From Escherichia phage KM02: a stretch of 40,673 nt of DNA. Both the position numbers and the translations under genes were made by a program. The stretch lies in the sequence record PQ179042. One strand, 5' to 3'. The notes beneath the pieces were generated by a model. That model worked only from the letters and a program-made list of their open reading frames with translations, was not told the DNA's origin and did not search any database. Below, piece after piece: positions 2,194-40,673 of the stretch; the stretch's first letter is position 1; each line of letters opens with the position of its first letter.

Positions 2194-2199
2194 TAAACT

Positions 2200-2400
2200 A
2201 TGAGTCTTGCACTATTGATAGCCATAGGCTATGGACTTATCGCCTACGTGCTGGTGAGAGACATCAACAAAGCGCGTAAAGTCTATAAATTCAACTATGT
2301 ACGTATGGTCCGCTGGACTGTACGTCAACCTAACGGACGATTCATGTGCAACCTCGCGAACGTCTGGGATATAGCAACTCTTGGGAGCAAACTACAATGA
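2200..2400 (+). CDS. Hypothetical protein (weak)
   Basis: 66-aa ORF in track; no clear SD; overlaps the next ORF. Confidence 0.2.
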   Translation: MSLALLIAIGYGLIAYVLVRDINKARKVYKFNYVRMVRWTVRQPNGRFMCNLANVWDIATLGSKLQ

Positions 2401-8554: not shown

Positions 8555-8709
8555 CTGATGTTGAGAAGAAATACATCGTGGAGCTTGAGGGTTGCGTTCA
8601 GTCCTTCGAGGTTCCGGTGTACGCAAAGTCTCTTGAAGAGGCTACCCTGAAGTCCCAAGAGTATGAGGACGCTGGTTTTGTGGTCGGACGAATCCGTCCT
8701 GAGACCTAA
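8551..8709 (+). CDS. 2: Gp2-like inhibitor of host RNA polymerase
   Basis: 52 aa; SFEVPVYA...[10 protein letters not shown] matches T7 Gp2 SFEVPIYA...AGFEVTRVRP as recalled; SD aaggag. Confidence 0.7.
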
Positions 8710-8727
8710 ACTATCACTGTAGGACAG
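8705..8727 (+). promoter_or_regulatory. Phage-RNAP promoter (phi2.5-like; variant CACTGTAGG)
   Basis: ctaaactatcactgtagg at 8706-8723. Confidence 0.6.
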
Positions 8728-8766
8728 ACGTCCAGTTCGTAACTTTAAATTAGGAGATTTACACCG

Positions 8767-9465
8767 ATGGCTAAAGAGCAACTGAAGACTTTCACCACTC
8801 CTGTAGCTGGTATCGTTGAGCCTTACGCATGGCTTAACAAAGCAGACACCAAGTTTAACGAGCGTGGTGAGCATAAGGTTAACCTGACTTTCAGTCTGGA
8901 TGACCCGAAGGTCCGTAAGATGATTGATGTATTACAGAAGATTCACGACGATGCGTATGCGAAAGCACTCGCAGACCACGAGAAGAACCCACCTCAGGTT
9001 CAGCGTGGCAAGAAGCCTATAGAGCCGCGTGAAGGCGACATGCCGTGGATTGCGAATGGTGACGGTACTGTTACCATGAAGTTTAAATGCTTTGCGTCTT
9101 ACCTGAAAGACGGCAAGTCAGAGCCTATCGTATTACGGTTCTACGACACCGATGCTAAACTCATCCGTGACGTCCCGAATATTGGCGCTGGGTCTAAGCT
9201 GAAGGTAAAGTTTAAAGTCCTGCCGTTCAAGTGGAACGCTGCGACTGGTGCAAGCGTTAAGCTCCAGCTTGAGTCCTGCCTTCTGGTAGAACTGAAGGAA
9301 TGGAAAGGTGATGGTACTGGTGGCGATGGTGGTTGGGGTGATGATGAAGACCTCGGTACTGGCTACAAAGCGTCAACAGATGGTGACTTCGGGTCTGATG
9401 ACTTCGGTGACGATGGTTCCGAAGGTGGTGACGACTCCAGCTCTGGTGGCGATTACGATTTTTGA
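8767..9465 (+). CDS. 2.5: Single-stranded DNA-binding protein
   Basis: 232 aa, identical length to T7 gp2.5; acidic C-terminal tail ending DYDF; internal GKKPIEPREGDMPW. Confidence 0.92.
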   Translation: MAKEQLKTFTTPVAGIVEPYAWLNKADTKFNERGEHKVNLTFSLDDPKVRKMIDVLQKIHDDAYAKALADHEKNPPQVQRGKKPIEPREGDMPWIANGDGTVTMKFKCFASYLKDGKSEPIVLRFYDTDAKLIRDVPNIGAGSKLKVKFKVLPFKWNAATGASVKLQLESCLLVELKEWKGDGTGGDGGWGDDEDLGTGYKASTDGDFGSDDFGDDGSEGGDDSSSGGDYDF

Positions 9466-9896
9466 AGAGACTAAACCGTGAGTCACTGCGGAGTAAGATA
9501 CTAGAAAATGTGACCAGAGAGAATTACTGCTGGATTTGGCAGAAGTCTTTCGGGTCACATGGATATGGTAATATAGGGACTGGGGGACAACGAAATGAGA
9601 CAGTACATAGGGTTTCATACGAAGTGTTCAATGGGACCATACCTGAAAAAATGCTGGTATTACATTCGTGTGACAACCGTAAGTGTTGCAACCCTGAGCA
9701 TTTACGGGTCGGAACATACAAGGAGAACCTCACGGATAGAGACACTAGGTCAAAGCGTGTGGTTGTTATGACTATGGATAAGGCTAGGGAGGCGAGAGCC
9801 TCTGGTCTTTCATGTACTGAACTAGCCACCAAATATGGCCTGTCTTATTCCTCAATGTTTAAGCTATTAAGAGGTGAGACATGGCGAGAAGTATGA
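9462..9896 (+). CDS. HNH homing endonuclease with C-terminal helix-turn-helix
   Basis: Motif YGNIGTGG...VHRVSYEVFNGTIPEKMLVLHSCDNRKCCNPEHL; sits between genes 2.5 and 3; TTG start with no clear SD. Confidence 0.75.
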   Translation: MKRLNRESLRSKILENVTRENYCWIWQKSFGSHGYGNIGTGGQRNETVHRVSYEVFNGTIPEKMLVLHSCDNRKCCNPEHLRVGTYKENLTDRDTRSKRVVVMTMDKAREARASGLSCTELATKYGLSYSSMFKLLRGETWREV

Positions 9897-10333
9897 GTAG
9901 AGGACATCAAGTCGGGGCGTATCGCTCTGGACTGGAGGCAAAGAACCAAGAGTGGCTTGAGAAGAATGGCGTAAAAGCTGAATACGAAGCATATAAGATA
10001 GGCTACGTAGTCCCATCTAGCGATCATTTTTACACGCCAGATTTTATCCTTCCTAACGGTATCATCGTGGAGACCAAAGGTATCTTCGAAAGCGATGACC
10101 GTAAGAAGCACCTTTTGGTACGAGAACAGCACCCAGAGTTAGACATCCGGTTCGTGTTCTCAAGTTCACGCTCCAAGTTATACAAAGGGTCTCCGACCAC
10201 GTATGGCGCATGGTGCGAAAAGAACGGCTTTAAGTATGCCGATAAGTTCATCCCGGTTGAGTGGCTGCGAGAGACGACTGTACGTCTGCCCTCAGGTATC
10301 CTCATCCCCAAGAAGAAAGGAGTTAAGTTATGA
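9881..10333 (+). CDS. 3: Endonuclease I (Holliday junction resolvase)
   Basis: 150 aa; YTPDFILPNGIIVETKG...DDRKKHLLVREQHPELDIRFVFSSSRSKLYKGSPTTYG closely matches T7 gp3. Confidence 0.92.
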   Translation: MARSMSRGHQVGAYRSGLEAKNQEWLEKNGVKAEYEAYKIGYVVPSSDHFYTPDFILPNGIIVETKGIFESDDRKKHLLVREQHPELDIRFVFSSSRSKLYKGSPTTYGAWCEKNGFKYADKFIPVEWLRETTVRLPSGILIPKKKGVKL

Positions 10334-10554
10334 CTCAAGAAGTTGAGGTCGTTCGTAAGCGTCTGACCATTGATAAAATCCCGGTAGGCTATGCGTTTAT
10401 CGTCCACGGTAAGCCGGGTGAAGTGTACGTGAAGATTAGTAACTCTCACGTCTTCAACCATAAGTTGCTCCAGATGCACACCACGGATGCTAACCGCTTC
10501 CAACGTCATCTGAACCTAGTAGCTGTAGAGCTGGTGGTGTATGATGGTGAGTAA
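10330..10554 (+). CDS. Hypothetical protein
   Basis: 74-aa ORF with strong SD aaaggag. Confidence 0.5.
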   Translation: MTQEVEVVRKRLTIDKIPVGYAFIVHGKPGEVYVKISNSHVFNHKLLQMHTTDANRFQRHLNLVAVELVVYDGE

Positions 10555-11002
10555 GGTGCAATTCAACCCACGGTCCCGGACTGACGCTATCTTCGTTCAC
10601 TGTTCGGCTACCAAGCCAGATATGGACATCGGGGTAGAGACCATCCGTATGTGGCATAAGCAGCAAGGCTGGCTTGACGTAGGCTACCACTTTATCATCA
10701 AGCGTGATGGTACTGTGGAAGAAGGTCGCCCGGTAAATGTCGTAGGGTCACACGTTAAGGACTGGAACTCCAAGTCCGTAGGCGTCTGCCTTGTAGGCGG
10801 AATCAACGCTAATGGTAAGTTTGAAGCTAACTTCACTACAGCCCAGATGAACTCCCTGCGCAACAAGCTGGCTGACCTGAAGGTCCTGTATCCTCAGGCA
10901 GAAATCAAAGCACACCATGACGTAGCGCCCAAGGCGTGTCCAAGTTTCGACTTGCAACGCTGGCTGTCTACCAACGAACTGGTAACTTCCGACCGTGGAT
11001 AA
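10541..11002 (+). CDS. 3.5: N-acetylmuramoyl-L-alanine amidase (T7 lysozyme)
   Basis: DAIFVHCSATKP, GWLDVGYHFIIKRDGTVEEGR, KACPSFDL, ELVTSDRG all match T7 gp3.5. Confidence 0.92.
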   Translation: MMVSKVQFNPRSRTDAIFVHCSATKPDMDIGVETIRMWHKQQGWLDVGYHFIIKRDGTVEEGRPVNVVGSHVKDWNSKSVGVCLVGGINANGKFEANFTTAQMNSLRNKLADLKVLYPQAEIKAHHDVAPKACPSFDLQRWLSTNELVTSDRG

Positions 11003-11026: not shown

Positions 11027-11242
11027 ATGATTAAACTTATTGAATTTCTTGGTCGTCTGGTGGTGCGTGGTTATCGTCGTGCTGCGGTACTGGAACGAAA
11101 GGTAGCAGAGAAGACTGCTGACGGTGCTGCTGATGCTGCTGCTCTGGCTGACAAGCTGACCATAGCGTCACTGGAAGCTGGAATGAAGGCTCGTCAGGCT
11201 GATACCAAAGCTGACCAGTTGTCTCAGTTCTTCAAAGACTAA
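11027..11242 (+). CDS. Hypothetical protein
   Basis: 71-aa ORF with SD aaaggag; its stop sits inside the next promoter. Confidence 0.5.
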   Translation: MIKLIEFLGRLVVRGYRRAAVLERKVAEKTADGAADAAALADKLTIASLEAGMKARQADTKADQLSQFFKD

Positions 11243-18908: not shown

Positions 18909-19149
18909 ATCAATCAGTAAGGCATTCAAGAAAGTGGTGAAAAGTACGCTAGGGACCGTTGGTCTTGGCTCTGATGACGCACCTAAGGTTGTTGAGGCTC
19001 AGACCCCAGCAGCACCAGTGGAAGTACCGAACGACCAAGTTGAAGATGTGGATACCGAAGCGACTGCATCTGACGAGAAGAAAGTGAAGAGTTCAGGTAA
19101 GCGTAGCCTTCAGGTCTCTCGTACCTCTGGTGGCGGTATTTCTATATGA
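18901..19149 (+). CDS. 7.3: gp7.3-like virion/tail protein
   Basis: MGK...KK N-terminus and C-terminal SGKRSLQVSRTSGGGISI match T7 gp7.3 (KKSLSVARSSGGGINI); GTG start. Confidence 0.7.
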   Translation: MGKSISKAFKKVVKSTLGTVGLGSDDAPKVVEAQTPAAPVEVPNDQVEDVDTEATASDEKKVKSSGKRSLQVSRTSGGGISI

Positions 19150-19538
19150 CACCATGTCATGAATGGGGTGGATACTGCACCAAGGATGGCTACGGTGAAA
19201 CTAGGGTAGATGGGCGCAAGGTTCGCGTTCATCGCCTAGAGTGGACGAAACACTACGGACCTATTCCGCATGACAAAGTGGTTCGCCACAAGTGTGACAA
19301 CCCTAAGTGTTTTAATATTGAACACCTAGAGTTAGGAACAACACAGGATAACACGGCTGACAGAGTGTCTCGTGGTCGAAGCGCCAAAGGAGAGGATAAC
19401 GGTAACGCCGTCCTCACTATTGATATTGTTAATGAGGTTCGCGAAAGTAGCATGTCTCAGCGCAAAATAGCGAAGACCTATGGAGTGTCACAGTCTACCG
19501 TATCTAAAATCAAACGCAATGTAACGTGGAGGTCATAA
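19146..19538 (+). CDS. HNH homing endonuclease with C-terminal helix-turn-helix (T7 gene 7.7 position)
   Basis: KDGYGETRVDGRKVRVHRLEW...GPIPHDKVVRHKCDNPKCFNIEHL plus HTH IAKTYGVSQSTVSKIKR; 130 aa. Confidence 0.8.
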   Translation: MTPCHEWGGYCTKDGYGETRVDGRKVRVHRLEWTKHYGPIPHDKVVRHKCDNPKCFNIEHLELGTTQDNTADRVSRGRSAKGEDNGNAVLTIDIVNEVRESSMSQRKIAKTYGVSQSTVSKIKRNVTWRS

Positions 19539-19539
19539 C

Positions 19540-21108
19540 ATGGCAGAACGTGAAGGATTTGCGGCTGAAGGGGCGAAGGCAGTTTATGATAGGCTAAAGA
19601 ACGGACGACAGCCTTACGAGACCCGCGCACAGAACTGCGCTGCCGTGACCATCCCCTCGCTATTTCCCAAGGAGTCCGACAACTCCTCTACGGAATACGT
19701 GACGCCGTGGCAAGCTGTAGGTGCTCGCTGTTTAAACAACTTGGCTGCAAAGCTGATGTTGGCATTATTCCCTCAGTCACCGTGGATGCGACTGACAGTC
19801 TCAGAATATGAGGCCAAGACCTTGAGTCAGGACTCAGAGGCTGCTGCTCGTGTTGACGAAGGGCTGGCTATGGTCGAGCGTGTGTTGATGGCATACATGG
19901 AGACTAACAGTTTCCGTGTCCCATTGTTCGAAGCTCTGAAGCAGCTTATCGTCTCAGGTAACTGTCTGCTCTACATTCCAGAGCCTGAACAGGGTACTTA
20001 CAGTCCTATGCGAATGTACCGCTTAGTGTCATACGTTGTTCAACGTGATGCTTTCGGTAACATCTTGCAGATTGTGACTCTCGACAAGGTAGCGTTTAGT
20101 GCTCTACCGGAAGACGTAAAGTCTCAACTCAACGCAGACGACTATGAGCCTGACACCGAGCTTGAAGTGTATACGCACATCTACCGTCAGGACGACGAGT
20201 ATCTGCGCTACGAGGAAGTGGAAGGCATTGAGGTTACAGGGACCGATGGTTCCTACCCGCTGACTGCATGTCCATACATCCCGGTACGAATGGTTCGACT
20301 GGATGGTGAAGACTACGGTCGTTCTTACTGCGAGGAGTATCTGGGAGACCTGAACTCGCTGGAGACGATTACAGAAGCTATCACTAAAATGGCTAAGGTA
20401 GCCTCCAAGGTGATTGGCCTCGTTAACCCGAACGGTATCACGCAACCTCGACGTCTGAACAAGGCTGCTACAGGTGAGTTCGTGGCTGGTCGCGTTGAGG
20501 ACATCAACTTCCTGCAACTGACGAAAGGTCAGGACTTTACGATTGCCAAGTCGGTGGCTGATGCTATCGAGCAACGTTTAGGCTGGGCCTTCCTTCTTAA
20601 TAGTGCTGTTCAGCGTAATGCCGAGCGAGTCACTGCTGAAGAGATTCGTTATGTTGCTGGCGAACTGGAGGCGACCTTAGGTGGCGTTTACTCAGTACAG
20701 TCACAAGAGCTTCAGTTACCTATCGTCCGTGTTCTGATGAACCAGCTTCAGTCTGCTGGAATGATTCCTGACCTTCCGAAAGAAGCGGTAGAGCCTACTG
20801 TCTCCACTGGTCTGGAAGCGTTAGGTCGTGGTCAGGACTTGGAGAAGCTAACTCAGGCGGTTAACATGATGACTGGTCTTCAGCCGCTATCTCAGGACCC
20901 GGACATCAACTTGCCGACCCTTAAGCTACGACTCCTGAACGCTCTGGGTATCGACACCGCTGGTCTACTCCTGACGCAAGACGAGAAGATTCAGCGCATG
21001 GCTGAGCAGTCGTCTCAACAGGCAGTTGTCCAAGGTGCGTCTGCTGCTGGTGCTAACATGGGTGCTGCTGTAGGTCAGGGAGCTGGTGAGGACATTGCTC
21101 AAGCCTAA
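19540..21108 (+). CDS. 8: Portal (head-tail connector) protein
   Basis: Near-identity to T7 gp8 over long stretches (YETRAQNCA, TIPSLFPK, TPWQAVGAR, YRLVSYVVQRDAFGN, YLRYEEVEG, RMVRLDGEDYGRSY). Confidence 0.97.
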   Translation: MAEREGFAAEGAKAVYDRLKNGRQPYETRAQNCAAVTIPSLFPKESDNSSTEYVTPWQAVGARCLNNLAAKLMLALFPQSPWMRLTVSEYEAKTLSQDSEAAARVDEGLAMVERVLMAYMETNSFRVPLFEALKQLIVSGNCLLYIPEPEQGTYSPMRMYRLVSYVVQRDAFGNILQIVTLDKVAFSALPEDVKSQLNADDYEPDTELEVYTHIYRQDDEYLRYEEVEGIEVTGTDGSYPLTACPYIPVRMVRLDGEDYGRSYCEEYLGDLNSLETITEAITKMAKVASKVIGLVNPNGITQPRRLNKAATGEFVAGRVEDINFLQLTKGQDFTIAKSVADAIEQRLGWAFLLNSAVQRNAERVTAEEIRYVAGELEATLGGVYSVQSQELQLPIVRVLMNQLQSAGMIPDLPKEAVEPTVSTGLEALGRGQDLEKLTQAVNMMTGLQPLSQDPDINLPTLKLRLLNALGIDTAGLLLTQDEKIQRMAEQSSQQAVVQGASAAGANMGAAVGQGAGEDIAQA

Positions 21109-24355: not shown

Positions 24356-24796
24356 ATGATACACGACAAGTGCGGTCTGGAGTTTAGGGAGGGAGCAAAA
24401 GGCTCATGCTTGAACTGTAGACGTATAGCCAAGCTGGTAAAGAAAGGACTATCAGTGGAGGAAGCTAGATTAGTTGAGCCGAGAGGAAAGAAGGTCATTA
24501 AAGATAAAGACTGGAAGAAGAACAGTCAGCTTAAATATCTTTATGGCATCAACCTAGAGAGGTTTAATAAAATGCGAAAGGAGGCAAACTATCAGTGCCA
24601 AATCTGTGGGTGTCATGAGAGCGAGAGTACAGGAGGGACATTATGTGTTGACCACAACCACGAAACTGGTGAGGTTAGAGGTCTTCTCTGTAGGCACTGC
24701 AATAAGTCTCTAGGAGGTTTCAAGGACTCCCGTGAGATTCTACTAAACGCTGCTAAGTATCTGGAGGACACATGCCGCTTATCACACAAAGCATAA
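24356..24796 (+). CDS. Endonuclease VII-like nuclease
   Basis: CQICGCHES...CVDHNHETGEVRGLLCRHCNKSLG matches the T4 endonuclease VII family core; SD ggaggtga. Confidence 0.75.
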   Translation: MIHDKCGLEFREGAKGSCLNCRRIAKLVKKGLSVEEARLVEPRGKKVIKDKDWKKNSQLKYLYGINLERFNKMRKEANYQCQICGCHESESTGGTLCVDHNHETGEVRGLLCRHCNKSLGGFKDSREILLNAAKYLEDTCRLSHKA

Positions 24797-27129
24797 AAAA
24801 TCTTAAAGGTGGCATTAGCCAGCAGCCTGATATACTGAGGTTCTCGGACCAAGGCGAGAAACAGGTAAACTGCTGGTCATCAGAGAGTGATGGCCTACAG
24901 AAGCGTCCACCTACAGTATTCAAGCGACGTCTTAACATCGACGTTGGGAGCAACCCTAAGTTCCACCTGATTAACCGTGATGAGCAGGAGCAGTATTACA
25001 TCGTGTTCAACGGGTCCAACATTCAGGTAGTCGACTTGAGCGGTAATCAATACTCAGTTTCAGGTGCGGTAGACTACGTTAAGTCGTCCAACCCGCGAGA
25101 TAACATCCGTGTCGTTACAGTTGCAGACTATACGTTCATCGTGAACCGTAAGGTTGTCGTTAACGGTGGAAGCGAGAAGTCACACTCTGGTTATAATCGT
25201 AAAGCTCGTGCTTTAATTAACCTGCGTGGTGGACAGTATGGTCGCACCCTTAAGGTAGGAATCAACGGAGGCGTTAAGGTTTCGCATAAGCTGCCAGCAG
25301 GTAATGATGCCGAGAATGACCCACCTAAGGTGGATGCTCAGGCCATCGGTGCAGCTCTGAGAGACCTTCTTGTTGCTGCTTACCCTACCTTCACGTTCGA
25401 CCTTGGGTCTGGCTTCCTGTTAATCACTGCCCCTTCAGGGACTGACATTAACTCAGTGGAGACGGAGGATGGCTACGCTAACCAGCTAATCAGCCCAGTC
25501 CTAGACACGGTGCAAACAATCTCTAAGTTGCCTCTTGCGGCTCCAAATGGGTACATCATTAAGATTCAAGGTGAGACCAACAGTAGCGCCGATGAATATT
25601 ACGTGATGTATGACTCCAATACTAAGACGTGGAAGGAGACAGTAGAGCCGGGAGTTGTCACTGGGTTCGATAACACCACAATGCCACATGCTCTGGTGAG
25701 ACAATCTGACGGCTCCTTTGAGTTTAAGACTCTGGACTGGTCTAAGCGGGGTGCTGGCAATGATGACACAAACCCTATGCCTAGCTTCGTGGATGCTACG
25801 ATTAACGATGTGTTCTTCTACAGGAACAGGCTAGGGTTCTTGTCCGGAGAGAACGTAATCATGAGCCGTTCAGCCAGCTACTTTGCGTTCTTCCCTAAGA
25901 GTGTGGCGACATTGAGTGATGATGATCCTATTGACGTAGCTGTAAGTCACCCTAGAATCTCAATACTTAAGTATGCCGTTCCGTTTAGCGAGCAGCTACT
26001 ACTTTGGTCAGATGAGGTGCAGTTCGTGATGACAAGCTCAGGGGTCCTTACCTCGAAGTCTATCCAGCTTGATGTGGGCTCAGAGTTTGCCTTAGGTGAT
26101 AACGCCAGACCGTTCGCTGTAGGACGCTCAGTCTTCTTCTCAGCGCCTCGTGGGTCATTCACCAGTATTAAGCGATACTTCGCTGTAGCAGATGTGTCTG
26201 ACGTGAAGGATGCCGATGATACCACTAGTCACGTACTGTCCTATATCCCTAACGGGGTGTTTGACATTCAAGGTACAGGGACTGAGAACTACATCTGCGT
26301 CAACTCTACAGGTGCATACAACCGAATCTACATCTACAAGTTCTTGTTTAAGGACGGCGTACAACTTCAAGCCTCTTGGTCGCACTGGGAGTTTCCTAAA
26401 GCTGATAAGATTCTGGCGTCTGCGTCGATTGGCTCTACCATGTTCATTGTTCGTCAGCACCAAGGGGGTGTGGACATTGAGCACCTTAAGTTCATCAAGG
26501 AGGCAACCGACTTTCCATTAGAGCCGTATAGACTCCACGTTGACTCCAAGGTGTCTATGGTAATACCAAATGGCTCATACAACGCTGACACCTATAAGAC
26601 TACGGTTGACATTGGTGCTGCTTATGGGGGCAACGCTCCGTCTCCCGGTCGGTACTATCTGATTGACAGTCAGGGTGCCTATGTGGACCTTGGTGAACTT
26701 ACCGACATCTCTACTGTGATTACCCTCAACGGCGATTGGTCGGGACGTACAGTGTTCATCGGACGGTCTTATCTGATGTCCTACAAGTTCTCACGGTTCC
26801 TGATTAAGATTGAAGACGATAGTGGCACTCAGTCTGAAGACACTGGTCGTCTACAGCTTCGTCGGGCTTGGGTCAACTACAAGGACACTGGCGCTCTGAG
26901 ACTCATTGTCAGAAACGGTGAGCGGGAGTTCGTGAATACCTTCAACGGGTACACCCTTGGTCAGCAAACCATCGGTACTACAAACATTGGTGACGGGCAG
27001 TATCGATTCGCTATGAATGGTAACGCATTAACCACGAGTCTAACCTTAGAGTCCGACTATCCTACCCCAGTGTCCATCGTTGGGTGTGGCTGGGAGGCAT
27101 CATACGCTAAGAAAGCTCGTTCAGTCTAA
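24772..27129 (+). CDS. 12: Tail tubular protein B
   Basis: SQSIKNLKGGISQQPDILR, LQKRPP, HLINRDE, VTVADYTFIVNR, RAWVNY, GCGWE match T7 gp12. Confidence 0.95.
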   Translation: MPLITQSIKNLKGGISQQPDILRFSDQGEKQVNCWSSESDGLQKRPPTVFKRRLNIDVGSNPKFHLINRDEQEQYYIVFNGSNIQVVDLSGNQYSVSGAVDYVKSSNPRDNIRVVTVADYTFIVNRKVVVNGGSEKSHSGYNRKARALINLRGGQYGRTLKVGINGGVKVSHKLPAGNDAENDPPKVDAQAIGAALRDLLVAAYPTFTFDLGSGFLLITAPSGTDINSVETEDGYANQLISPVLDTVQTISKLPLAAPNGYIIKIQGETNSSADEYYVMYDSNTKTWKETVEPGVVTGFDNTTMPHALVRQSDGSFEFKTLDWSKRGAGNDDTNPMPSFVDATINDVFFYRNRLGFLSGENVIMSRSASYFAFFPKSVATLSDDDPIDVAVSHPRISILKYAVPFSEQLLLWSDEVQFVMTSSGVLTSKSIQLDVGSEFALGDNARPFAVGRSVFFSAPRGSFTSIKRYFAVADVSDVKDADDTTSHVLSYIPNGVFDIQGTGTENYICVNSTGAYNRIYIYKFLFKDGVQLQASWSHWEFPKADKILASASIGSTMFIVRQHQGGVDIEHLKFIKEATDFPLEPYRLHVDSKVSMVIPNGSYNADTYKTTVDIGAAYGGNAPSPGRYYLIDSQGAYVDLGELTDISTVITLNGDWSGRTVFIGRSYLMSYKFSRFLIKIEDDSGTQSEDTGRLQLRRAWVNYKDTGALRLIVRNGEREFVNTFNGYTLGQQTIGTTNIGDGQYRFAMNGNALTTSLTLESDYPTPVSIVGCGWEASYAKKARSV

Positions 27130-38035: not shown

Positions 38036-39802
38036 ATGTCTAAGAAAACACCTGTTGAAAGACAGGAAGAAATGACCAAAAGGATGAGGGACGACTTCGT
38101 GTTCTTCATCTTCGTTCTCTGGAAAGCTCTTAGCCTTCCGGTTCCAACCCGCTGCCAGATAGATATGTGTAAGAAGCTGGCTGCTGGGGATAATCGCCGC
38201 TTCATCCTTCAGGCGTTCCGTGGTATTGGCAAGTCGTTTCTGACCTGTGGTTTCGTGGTCTGGAAACTATGGAACAACCCAGACTTGAAGTTCATGATTG
38301 TGTCTGCCTCAAAGGAACGAGCCGATGCGAACTCCATCTTCATCAAGCGAATCATCGACCTCATGCCTCAGCTTCAGGAACTCAAACCTAAGCAGGGACA
38401 GCGAGATGCGGTTATCAGCTTTGACGTTGGGCCAGCCAAGCCAGATCACTCACCTTCGGTTAAGTCCGTTGGTATCACTGGTCAGTTGACTGGTAGTCGT
38501 GCTGACATCCTGATTGCCGATGACGTGGAGGTTCCTAACAACTCAGCGACTCAGGCTGCACGAGACCGTCTGTCAGAGCTTGTGAAAGAGTTCGACGCTA
38601 TCCTGAAGCCGGGAGGTACAATCATCTATCTGGGTACTCCTCAGAACGAGATGACCTTGTATCGTGAGCTGGAAGGCCGTGGGTACACCACTACTATCTG
38701 GCCCGCTCGTTATCCACGAGACCGGAAGGACTGGCAGTCTTACGGCGACCGTCTGGCTCCTATGCTTCAGGCAGAGCTTGAAGAGGACCCTGAGTCATTC
38801 TACTGGCGTCCGACTGATGAAGTACGCTTCGATGATACGGACCTTAAGGAACGTGAGCTGTCATATGGTAAGGCTGGCTTCGCTCTACAGTTCATGCTTA
38901 ACCCGAACCTGAGTGATGCCGAGAAGTACCCACTGAAGCTCCGTGACCTTATCGTAGCGGATTTGGACCCAGCGTCCAGCCCAATGGTCTACCAATGGTT
39001 ACCGAACCCTCAGAACAAGCGTGAGGACGTTCCTAACGTTGGACTCATGGGTGACTCATACCACACGTATCAGACTGTAGGTTCTGCCTTCAGTTCGTAC
39101 ACCCAGAAGATTCTGGTCATTGACCCTAGTGGTCGTGGTAAGGATGAAACTGGCTATGCGGTACTGTATCAGCTCAACGGCTACATCTTCGCTATGGAAG
39201 TTGGTGGTATGCGTGGTGGTTATGAAGACTCTACGCTGGAAGCCTTAGCTAAGATTGGTCGTAAGTGGAAGGTCAACGAATACGTCATTGAGGGTAACTT
39301 CGGTGATGGTATGTACCTTGAGCTATTCAAGCCTGTAGCGGCCCGTATCCATCCTGCTGCTGTAACTGAAGTGAAGAGTAAGGGTCAGAAAGAACTCCGC
39401 ATCTGTGACGTTCTGGAGCCTATCATGGGGTCTCACCGGCTTATCGTTAATGCTGCTGCTATCGTCCAAGACTACCAGTCAGCCTCCGATAAGGATGGTG
39501 TGCGTAACCCTATCTACTCCCTCTTCTACCAGATGACCCGTATCTCCCGTGAACGTGGAGCCTTGGCACACGATGACAGACTTGATGCGCTGGCTATCGG
39601 TGTACAGTTCTTCGTTGAGTCTATGGCGAAGGATGCCAACAAAGGCGAACGTGAAGTCACTGAGGAGTGGCTGGAAGAACAGATGGAGAACCCACGGAAA
39701 GGCTTCGAGTCCATCCACACTGAGTTCTGGGACAATGGGGTCCGGGTAACTCACGATACGGACGACGAGCTTGGACTAGGGTCCTACGTTACGTTCCACT
39801 AG
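38036..39802 (+). CDS. 19: Terminase large subunit
   Basis: 588 aa; [25 protein letters not shown] and the nuclease-domain region match T7 gp19. Confidence 0.97.
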
Positions 39803-40497: not shown

Positions 40498-40673
40498 TCT
40501 CACAGTTCAAGAACCTCAAGTCTCCCCATAGGCCCTCTTTCAGTCAGACCAAAGGCCCTACCCCAGTCTATCATAAGGTTGGACCGATGGTCAAGACTTC
40601 AGGTCAACGATAGGTAGAGGCTATGGCTTAGGGAAGGACGATAGGTTGGGACTATGGGTCTTCTTTGAGTCTC
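40498..40673. repeat. Right direct terminal repeat (176 bp), identical to 2-177
   Basis: Exact sequence identity with the left end, read directly. Confidence 0.95.

Follow-up and report, generated by a model that had tools for sequence, protein, structure and literature searches.

A probable homing endonuclease gene of the T7 gene 2.8 family between genes 2.5 and 3 of Escherichia phage KM02

The window, meaning the whole stretch of 40,673 nucleotides analysed here (Escherichia phage KM02, PQ179042), is a complete Kayfunavirus-like genome of the T7 type. Between its genes 2.5 and 3 lies an open reading frame for an HNH protein, which raises the question of what this gene is and how it came to be placed there. 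The neighbours were named as SSB and endonuclease I in a preliminary description made from the sequence, and profile searches bear this out: gene 2.5 (8767..9465, + strand) matches the T7-type SSB (PF21265, 2.3e-72) and gene 3 (9881..10333, + strand) matches endonuclease I, the Holliday junction resolvase (PF05367, 2.4e-76). On the reading that is very probably correct, drawn from sequence and from analogy with known systems, the open reading frame represents a free-standing homing endonuclease gene (HEG) of the HNH_3/I-HmuI-like kind, a member of the T7 gene 2.8 family that would spread by homing with co-conversion.

The gene occupies 9462..9896 on the + strand and encodes 144 amino acids, with a TTG start and a TGA stop. 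These coordinates, and the overlaps with the gene 2.5 stop and the gene 3 start, are as first described. The TTG start combines with the gene 2.5 stop codon (TGA, 9463-9465) to form TTGA, an overlap of 4 nt. At the other end, with the ATG at 9881 taken as the start of gene 3, the stop codon (TGA, 9894-9896) reaches 16 nt into that gene; should gene 3 begin instead at the ATG at 9893, the two genes would share an ATGA overlap. Gene 2.5 ends in GAT TTT TGA here versus GAC TTC TAA in phages with an empty site, and these synonymous variants create the TTG start while retaining the ...DYDF C-terminus of SSB. Both flanking genes are undamaged by the insertion, as seen in the list of open reading frames and the junction alignment, and gene 3 is of full length. 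Two reverse-strand open reading frames (9524..9832 and 9373..9618) have no other support and were set aside as spurious, each a shadow of the gene on the + strand.

The TTG start is non-canonical and is preceded by a weak and distant Shine-Dalgarno sequence. Both this start codon and the TTGA overlap are also kept in the phage vB_Eco_ZCEC02 (ZCEC02). Comparison with the ZCEC02 allele gives a pN of 0.146 and a pS of 0.724, a pN/pS far below 1, and at the level of sequence the gene appears intact and under purifying selection across the whole protein, including its C-terminal helix-turn-helix (HTH).

The gene does not seem to have its own transcription signals. A phage RNA-polymerase promoter, the equivalent of phi2.5, is located 5' of gene 2.5 (8706..8723, + strand) and reads CTAAACTATCACTGTAGG, with one mismatch to the consensus; phi2.5 is equally placed in T7 and T3. 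In the window, 11 copies of this consensus were found against 0.02 expected, and the next copy after 8706 is at 11239. Scans for sigma-70 and terminator consensus sequences gave hits at chance level only. A promoter or terminator belonging to the HNH gene was thus rejected, the phage consensus being present nearby only at 8706 and 11239, and the gene is not a separate transcription unit since neither signal was found. The promoter at 8706 is presumed to drive a 2.5-HNH-3 transcript.

The nuclease assignment is carried by the catalytic core. Residues 48-89 (9603..9728, + strand) form an HNH_3 or His-Me finger core according to Pfam, alignment and predicted fold. The HMM search that had been proposed as a check of the family returned Pfam HNH_3 (PF13392) at E = 9.6e-14, scoring 51.2 bits where the cut-off is 24.8. 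This family is common to all close homologs, and PHROG endonuclease/HNH families also match (down to 6.7e-31); NCBIfam gave no match to the protein. An alignment of 43 homologs shows no variation at H68, N77, H80, N89, C23, C70 and C75, and almost none at D71 and N72. H68, the putative general base, and N89 line up with the His and Asn of I-HmuI in a profile alignment. By sequence, the protein thus passes the HNH_3 gathering score with its catalytic His and the Asn/His residues of the metal site all present.

Among solved structures, I-HmuI of Bacillus phage SPO1 (PDB 1U3E) is the best match by both profile and fold. The profile match (E = 7.7e-4, residues 33-163) spans the nuclease and the HTH. 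An AF2 model of the KM02 protein, built from an alignment with GenBank-derived rows left out, has a pLDDT of 90.8, and Foldseek ranks 1U3E first (prob 1.00) and I-PpoI next among its matches. The remaining Foldseek figures against I-HmuI are not strong (E 3.7e-3, TM 0.43, rmsd 10.7 A), as expected for an extended two-domain protein. The two proteins share an order of parts comprising an N-terminal beta-rich segment, the HNH (beta-beta-alpha-metal) core, a helical linker and a C-terminal HTH. Identity is about 19%, however, and I-HmuI lacks both the Cys cluster of the KM02 protein (C23, C70, C75, C76) and its partial His-Cys-box-like match (zf-His_Me_endon, Pfam). The I-HmuI gene also lies inside a DNA polymerase gene, within its group I intron, whereas the KM02 gene stands free between two genes. 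I-HmuI-type enzymes nick one strand in a strand-specific manner, and single-strand nicking by the KM02 protein is inferred by analogy.

A C-terminal HTH had also been described, and predicted helices, the I-HmuI alignment and HTH_psq scores support it. The putative DNA-binding domain comprises three helices within residues 105-136 (9774..9869, + strand), placed by model and profile alignment. Five lines of support can be named, none of them strong singly. The AF2 model predicts helices at 105-113, 118-125 and 129-136 with a pLDDT of about 90. The profile alignment extends through the HTH domain of I-HmuI. Pfam HTH_psq matches the tail alone at E = 0.0025, which is below the cut-off. A paralog at 19146..19538, recovered in a Pfam scan of mid-size open reading frames and 37% identical in pairwise comparison, has an aligned tail that scores 21.8 bits for HTH_psq versus a gathering threshold of 20.4. 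Several HTH proteins are found among the weaker fold matches of the model. An HNH core followed by a C-terminal HTH is the two-domain architecture of I-HmuI, and the KM02 protein is predicted to have it.

One statement of the preliminary description fails, namely that this junction holds no gene in T7. T7 (NC_001604) carries gene 2.8 (9857-10276), annotated as an endonuclease of 139 aa, exactly between genes 2.5 and 3. BLASTP aligns its product (NP_041971) with the KM02 protein along its full length at 37% identity over 136 columns (E = 1e-21); the alignment takes in the LR.KILE helix at the N-terminus, the HNH core and the HTH-like tail at the C-terminus. The gene 3 start is overlapped in T7 as well. 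The two also differ: T7 gene 2.8 begins with an ATG directly after the gene 2.5 stop whereas the KM02 gene begins with a TTG overlapping it, and T7 gp2.8 has about 5 fewer residues in the loop ahead of the HNH core. By sequence and by position, the KM02 gene is evidently a homolog of T7 gene 2.8, so that with respect to T7 it is no novelty. The right comparison for absence is T3 together with most Kayfunavirus genomes, all of which lack the gene. In the literature searched, T7 gp2.8 was not found as a characterised enzyme and was mentioned once, incidentally, with HNH. The T7 HNH genes have been treated as dispensable homing endonucleases (bioRxiv 10.1101/2025.09.07.674715).

The description of the junction as an insertion site for mobile nucleases holds when relatives are compared. 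The 2.5/3 junction is uninterrupted in 201 of the 214 Kayfunavirus-like records of a phage collection, so that about 94% have no HNH gene, and these HNH-less relatives share about 93% genome identity with KM02. The gene is therefore sporadic and not a core gene conserved across all relatives. Among IMG/VR loci with an SSB at least 85% identical, 9 are empty, 3 are occupied and 1 is scarred. The T3 junction is empty, and those of T7 and KP32i195 are occupied. In ZG49 the HNH gene has been lost and only a deletion scar remains. The record SHAK9454 is UNVERIFIED and its annotation is displaced relative to its sequence; the sequence alone was used. Presence or absence at one locus among close relatives is the polymorphism by which a HEG is recognised.

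Occupied junctions do not all hold the same gene. The gene 2.8 type of HNH family is present at the 2.5/3 junction in several genera, and at least 4 HNH lineages with about 40% mutual identity share it in different relatives (the window type, the TM1 type, the Penshu1 type and the L018/L063/UFJF_EcSW4/Midid type). HNH genes of Przondovirus (KP32-like), Leclercia, Pantoea and Escherichia T7-like phages have the same junction and architecture; identity to the KM02 protein is 57-59% for KP32i195, Patroon, 10164-302 and F2M1C. Some homologs of 122-124 aa lack the HTH tail. The nearest GenBank phage protein is the HNH protein of ZCEC02 (80% identical), and the nearest GenBank phage HNH allele is only 75% identical in nucleotides, while the flanks of the KM02 gene are about 93% identical to many phages. 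A metagenome copy (ENA protein P0001) is far closer, at 98% identity in protein and 99% in nucleotides.

Other settings for the gene were considered. It is not inside an intron or intein and its neighbours are intact, which is what defines a free-standing HEG. No structured RNA was matched by Rfam at E <= 1 within 8600-10600; the absence of any Rfam family there means that no group I intron surrounds the gene, and a group I intron or other structured RNA was ruled out as its context. No target-site duplication or terminal repeats are visible in the junction alignment, as expected of homing and not of transposition. A terminase-associated HNH protein (HK97 gp74-like) was likewise rejected, the gene being sporadic and located in the DNA-metabolism region, about 28 kb from the large open reading frame at 38036..39802 that is assigned as terminase large subunit by position only.

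The sequence to the right of the gene provides further evidence of mobility. Relative to empty-site phages, KM02 is 97-100% identical up to the gene 2.5 stop, falls to 57-81% over 9907-10056, and returns to at least 97% from 10057. This comparison delimits a divergent patch of about 150 nt at the 5' end of gene 3 (9897..10056, + strand; haplotype A). In 199 of 216 records, identity to KM02 across this stretch is only 60-80%. No co-conversion tract is seen by the same comparison on the gene 2.5 side. The patch has 3 or more haplotypes, with A, B and D set against a majority type C. In a survey that covered 26 loci rather than all 214 records, and that included some duplicates of one phage, all 13 of the 13 empty loci are type C and every occupied or scarred locus is non-C. 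The HNH gene is paired with type A in KM02 and with type B in ZCEC02 and in the 98%-identical ENA copy. That an HNH gene with 99% nucleotide identity lies beside a different gene 3 patch indicates that recombination had a breakpoint where the HNH gene ends, on its 3' side. A divergent linked flank with a breakpoint at the border of the gene is another feature by which free-standing HEGs are known. HEGs have been described at the limits of the segments over which phages exchange genes (PMC10448857).

From these alignments, the borders of the apparent cassette are defined at about 9459 and about 10056. The pattern fits a homing and co-conversion cassette with a target at or just to the right of the junction. 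The gene 3 patch is a candidate for the location of a resistant target variant, or for a co-conversion tract. It could also be a simple import from a diverged donor and not the target.

The T4-like Seg and Mob systems offer a comparison. Seg proteins are GIY-YIG enzymes and Mob proteins are HNH enzymes with zinc-finger tails, and cleavage and homing have been demonstrated experimentally for both. Like the KM02 gene, their genes are sporadic and inserted at gene ends or between genes, by conserved essential genes, and the KM02 locus matches their pattern of a resistant target variant with co-conversion of the flank. Their DNA-binding modules are unlike that of the KM02 protein, for which homing is deduced from sequence.

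A mechanism can be proposed on this basis. The HNH gene would be transcribed from the 8706 promoter as a member of the class II (DNA metabolism) unit and translated at a low level, coupled to gene 2.5 through the TTGA overlap; with a TTG start and a poor, distant Shine-Dalgarno sequence, expression could be very low. When an HNH-less relative infects the same cell, the protein would use its HTH and nuclease domains to bind a specific site in the recipient DNA, perhaps at the empty junction or in the type C 5' end of gene 3 but conceivably elsewhere, and would nick or cut it. Recombinational repair off the HNH-carrying genome would then copy the HNH gene and the adjacent resistant gene 3 patch, that is, by co-conversion. 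The carrier genome, with an interrupted junction and a different gene 3 patch, would for these reasons be immune.

A different proposal is that the protein is a domesticated or moonlighting accessory that helps the phage, with homing secondary or lost. It might mask DNA ends from GAPS4-like break-sensing defence through nuclease-independent DNA binding, or exclude co-infecting relatives. GAPS4 is reported to be attenuated by two phage HNH homing endonucleases, T7 gp3.8 among them, in a manner that does not depend on catalysis, and a T7 mutant lacking three homing endonucleases, which is viable and gives a shorter PCR amplicon around gp2.8, is outcompeted on GAPS4 hosts in competitions tracked by PCR of the gp2.8 flank (bioRxiv 10.1101/2025.09.07.674715). 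Purifying selection over the entire protein, the HTH included, and persistence of the family at one junction across several genera are in keeping with such a role. However, most close relatives (about 94%) do without the gene and ZG49 has lost its copy, the invariant catalytic residues would be needless for DNA masking alone, and the linked divergent patch with a breakpoint at the gene end is a signature of mobility. As the main account of the gene, an accessory role is judged unlikely. Accessory function and homing are compatible, and it is possible, by analogy with the report for T7 gp3.8, that a gp2.8-type protein also blunts break-sensing host defence.

It is very unlikely that the gene is an inactive relic, a once-mobile HEG that no longer cuts and is kept as harmless and recently inherited. 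The non-canonical start and weak Shine-Dalgarno sequence would suit a relic, and the homologs without the HTH tail, together with the ZG49 deletion, indicate that decay does occur in this family. Yet the KM02 reading frame is of full length with all catalytic and Zn-type residues intact, pN/pS against ZCEC02 is far below 1, and that phage shares the TTG start with its TTGA overlap. The 98%-identical copy in a phage with different flanks further implies recent transfer or recombination. A core replication or recombination factor, or a transcription regulator, acting as an HTH partner of SSB and endonuclease I is scarcely credible, for although the gene carries an HTH and sits in a DNA-metabolism operon overlapping two recombination/replication genes, it is missing from 201 of 214 relatives at about 93% genome identity, is replaced elsewhere by HNH proteins only about 40% identical, and is absent from T3. 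In T7, a mutant without three homing endonucleases is viable although its gp2.8 flanking region is shortened (bioRxiv 10.1101/2025.09.07.674715).

Free-standing homing endonucleases of this kind have long been known, and the KM02 gene adds a new allele. Alone it carries little weight: T7-like phages commonly have HNH homing endonuclease genes, and gene 2.8 has been mapped since the T7 genome was sequenced. The comparison does correct a misconception at the level of annotation, the slot being occupied in T7. The value of the locus lies in the natural experiment that it provides, with about 200 empty sites, at least 4 HNH lineages, one scar and perfectly linked gene 3 alleles. Such material could serve to map the specificity of a gp2.8-type enzyme, and to follow how HEGs drive the replacement of alleles in a recombination gene that is essential. 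More tentatively, and less probably than not, the 2.5/3 junction may be a long-lived hot spot at which competing HNH lineages each drive in their own gene 3 5' allele of about 50 codons. If so, HEG traffic would be the source of diversity in the N-terminal portion of endonuclease I, with haplotypes A, B and D beside the majority C, and the type C allele of gene 3 would be the target shared by the HNH lineages.

The ORF at 9462..9896 (+ strand, 144 aa) lies between two T7-type genes and overlaps both, exactly as the preliminary description had it. Upstream is gene 2.5, encoding a T7-type single-stranded DNA-binding protein (SSB; PF21265, 2.3e-72), and downstream is gene 3, encoding endonuclease I (PF05367, 2.4e-76). 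The TTG start overlaps the TGA stop of gene 2.5 (T-TTG-A, 9462-9465). The TGA stop at 9894-9896 falls 16 nt within gene 3 if that gene starts at ATG 9881, or forms an ATGA overlap if it starts at ATG 9893. The TTG start is credible because no ATG or GTG precedes the conserved N-terminal helix (LRSKILE here, LREKILE at the aligned position in T7 gp2.8), and because the same TTG/TGA arrangement is kept in phage ZCEC02. Perfect 176-bp direct terminal repeats (2-177 = 40498-40673) mark the window as a complete linear T7-like genome, and approximately 86% of its first 25 kb aligns to Kayfunavirus genomes at about 93% identity. The phage-polymerase promoter consensus CTAAACTATCACTATAGG occurs 11 times against 0.02 expected, with one copy at 8706-8723 upstream of gene 2.5 and the next only at 11239. 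The HNH gene would be co-transcribed with genes 2.5 and 3, and its translation is expected to be low and coupled to gene 2.5, given the TTG start, the TTGA overlap and a nearest GGTGG 12 nt upstream.

The protein matches Pfam HNH_3 over aa 48-89 (E = 9.6e-14, 51.2 bits against a cut-off of 24.8), with an additional sub-threshold match of His-Cys-box type, and nine endonuclease/HNH families in PHROGs (best 6.7e-31). Across 43 aligned homologs, H68, N77, H80, N89, C23, C70, C75, G34 and Y35 never vary and H49, R50, D71 and N72 hardly do; the catalytic core is intact. The profile of this alignment identifies I-HmuI (PDB 1U3E) as the best solved relative (E = 7.7e-4), the match extending from before the HNH core to the C-terminal HTH. 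In an AlphaFold2 model built from 39 homologs (mean pLDDT 90.8), the N-terminal part is rich in beta structure, the HNH core follows, and the C-terminus folds into three helices (105-113, 118-125 and 129-136). Foldseek against the PDB places 1U3E top (probability 1.00, 136 columns, E = 3.7e-3, TM 0.43) and I-PpoI next, with several HTH proteins among the weaker matches. Taken by themselves, the last 52 residues match HTH families only below threshold (HTH_psq, E = 0.0025). A paralog encoded at 19146..19538 shares 37% identity with the protein of 9462..9896 over both nuclease and tail; its tail scores 21.8 bits for HTH_psq, above the gathering score of 20.4, other HTH matches being sub-threshold. 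The proposed HNH protein with a C-terminal HTH is thus accepted, the HTH on convergent evidence of moderate strength. Compared with the ZCEC02 allele, the gene has a pN of 0.146 and a saturated pS of 0.724; the ratio is far below 1, indicating purifying selection. By the available tests the gene can be placed among the HNH_3 / I-HmuI-like homing endonucleases, presumably working like them, and more specifically in the T7 gp2.8 family at the 2.5/3 junction. Four metagenome homologs (P0010, P0014, P0016 and P0018; 122-124 aa) are 67-77% identical over the nuclease domain and carry a short unrelated tail in place of the HTH, which suggests that members of this family exchange their DNA-binding domain as a module or lose it.

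The insertion is real, but the rationale first offered for it, that T7 has no gene at this junction, is false. The T7 reference record places gene 2.8 (9857-10276, 139 aa, annotated 'endonuclease') exactly between genes 2.5 and 3, where it likewise overlaps the start of gene 3, and full-length identity between gp2.8 and the window protein is 37% (E = 1e-21). In T3, gene 2.5 passes straight into gene 3 with no gene between. The slot is therefore polymorphic across the subfamily, and the window gene corresponds, in Kayfunavirus, to gene 2.8 of T7. The gene is an insertion relative to close relatives: a 241-nt query across the empty junction of phage SH3 matched 214 records, 201 of them in one unbroken piece, so that approximately 94% of relatives have no gene here; in the others the junction is occupied or scarred. 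A megablast search with the 2.5-HNH-3 segment found 222 related records, nearly all split in two with a record span about 413 nt shorter than that of the query.

Comparison of occupied loci distinguishes at least four HNH lineages at the junction. The window type is found in the window, an ENA metagenome contig (98% aa) and ZCEC02 (80% aa); the TM1 type, which shares 39% identity with the window protein, in TM1 and SHAK9454; the Penshu1 type in Penshu1 and the IMG/VR locus L012; and the fourth in the compared loci L018 and L063, UFJF_EcSW4 and Midid. By tblastn, the alleles next closest to that of the window (57-59% aa) come from Klebsiella KP32-like, Leclercia, Pantoea and other Escherichia phages, and they too lie between the SSB and endonuclease I genes. 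Nucleotide identity to the closest GenBank allele is just 75%, compared with about 93% between the flanks and those of many phages. The SHAK9454 record (OR594184.1, vB_EcoM_SHAK9454) is UNVERIFIED, its feature table is displaced relative to the sequence so that a 'primase/helicase' label covers the SSB-HNH-endonuclease I region, and its suffix 'EcoM' conflicts with a podovirus-type genome. In Kayfunavirus-like Salmonella phages of the PRF-SP/STP-SP/CRW-SP series the junction is empty and a 37-38%-identical HNH homolog lies about 1 kb downstream (e.g. OL773676.2 9780-10020, 10752-11189), so that the family occupies another insertion slot there.

The left border of the insertion is sharp. Gene 2.5 is 97-100% identical throughout between the window and empty-site phages, and the sole differences at its end are synonymous (GAC TTC TAA to GAT TTT TGA), yielding the TTG start of the HNH gene and leaving the SSB C-terminal ...DYDF unchanged. 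On the right, gene 3 homology is recognisable from the first codons (MARSMSRGHQVGAYR vs MAQWSAKRGHSVGAYR), with identity to empty-site phages of 57-81% over 9907-10056 and at least 97% thereafter. Over 9897-10060, identity is no higher than 60-80% in 199 of the 216 records matched across the database, against a genome identity of about 93%. This gene-3 patch has at least four haplotypes: A in the window, TM1, SHAK9454 and ZG49; B in the ENA contig, ZCEC02 and Penshu1; D and D' in the fourth HNH type and L012; and C in all empty sites. Patch C marks every empty site, and no occupied or scarred one, among the 26 Kayfunavirus-like loci examined, some of which are duplicate entries for one phage. 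HNH lineage and patch type are reshuffled among loci; the window and the ENA contig, 99% identical in HNH nucleotides, carry patches A and B, switching at about 9880-9970. ZG49 carries a deletion scar at 2199..2260 of its own locus, where all that remains of a TM1-type HNH gene is its first ~50 nt, fused to the beginning of gene 3. Its patch is still type A, a natural case of homing endonuclease gene (HEG) loss leaving the linked flank behind.

Three features together form the classical footprint of a free-standing homing endonuclease: the selfish nuclease gene itself, the divergent patch linked to it in the essential gene next door, and recombination breakpoints at its edges. Nucleases at boundaries of genetic exchange have been described (PMC10448857). 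During mixed infection the HNH protein would recognise a site in HNH-less genomes and nick or cut there, and repair templated by the carrier genome would copy the HNH gene together with the gene-3 patch. In our judgement, the type-C 5' end of gene 3 is somewhat favoured as the cut site, given the perfect association and the confinement of divergence to the gene 3 side. The junction itself, which the insertion disrupts, is a distinctly weaker candidate, and a site elsewhere is less probable still. Only tentatively might the junction be regarded as a multi-lineage HEG hot spot that diversifies the N-terminal part of endonuclease I, possibly with an anti-defence side role.

A benefit to the phage that is partly nuclease-independent is possible and would be compatible with homing, for example if the protein weakened the break-sensing GAPS4 defence, an effect reported for T7 gp3.8 and for an HNH protein of a BASEL phage (bioRxiv 10.1101/2025.09.07.674715). 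In the same study wild-type T7 was competed against a mutant without three homing endonucleases, and the competition was followed by PCR of the gp2.8-flanking region, whose product is shorter in the mutant. Absence of the gene from 94% of relatives speaks against a beneficial role, and invariant catalytic residues against nuclease independence. An inactive relic is unlikely in view of the purifying selection, the intact HNH motifs and the near-identical copy in a genome with different flanks. Sporadic distribution rules out a core function, and an intron-encoded enzyme is ruled out by the position between two separate genes and by a search for RNA families around the HNH gene, which detected none.

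The HNH insertion is a real but ordinary finding; elements of this kind, at this location and with this behaviour, have long been known. New is only the allele, 80% identical in amino acids to the nearest GenBank phage protein and 98% to an unannotated metagenome contig, together with patch A. The paralog at 19146..19538 (+ strand, 130 aa) is a second HNH_3 plus HTH gene (HNH_3 3.4e-17) directly upstream of a 522-aa ORF (19540..21108) in the place of the T7 portal gene, which is the position of T7 gene 7.7. A 146-aa ORF at 24356..24796 (+ strand) with an Endonuclease_7 domain (PF02945, 2.2e-20) overlaps the start of a 785-aa ORF (24772..27129) in the tail-tubular gene region and is a candidate for another free-standing nuclease gene; an 'endonuclease VII' is listed as an extra gene in a Hafnia Kayfunavirus (PMC8861465). 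The slot between gene 3 and the amidase gene (10330..10554, + strand) also varies between relatives: an ORF of 74 aa fills it in the window, SH3, ST3, ZCEC02 and Penshu1, and an unrelated one of 151-163 aa in TM1, Vec13 and the ENA contig L089, neither of them matching Pfam.
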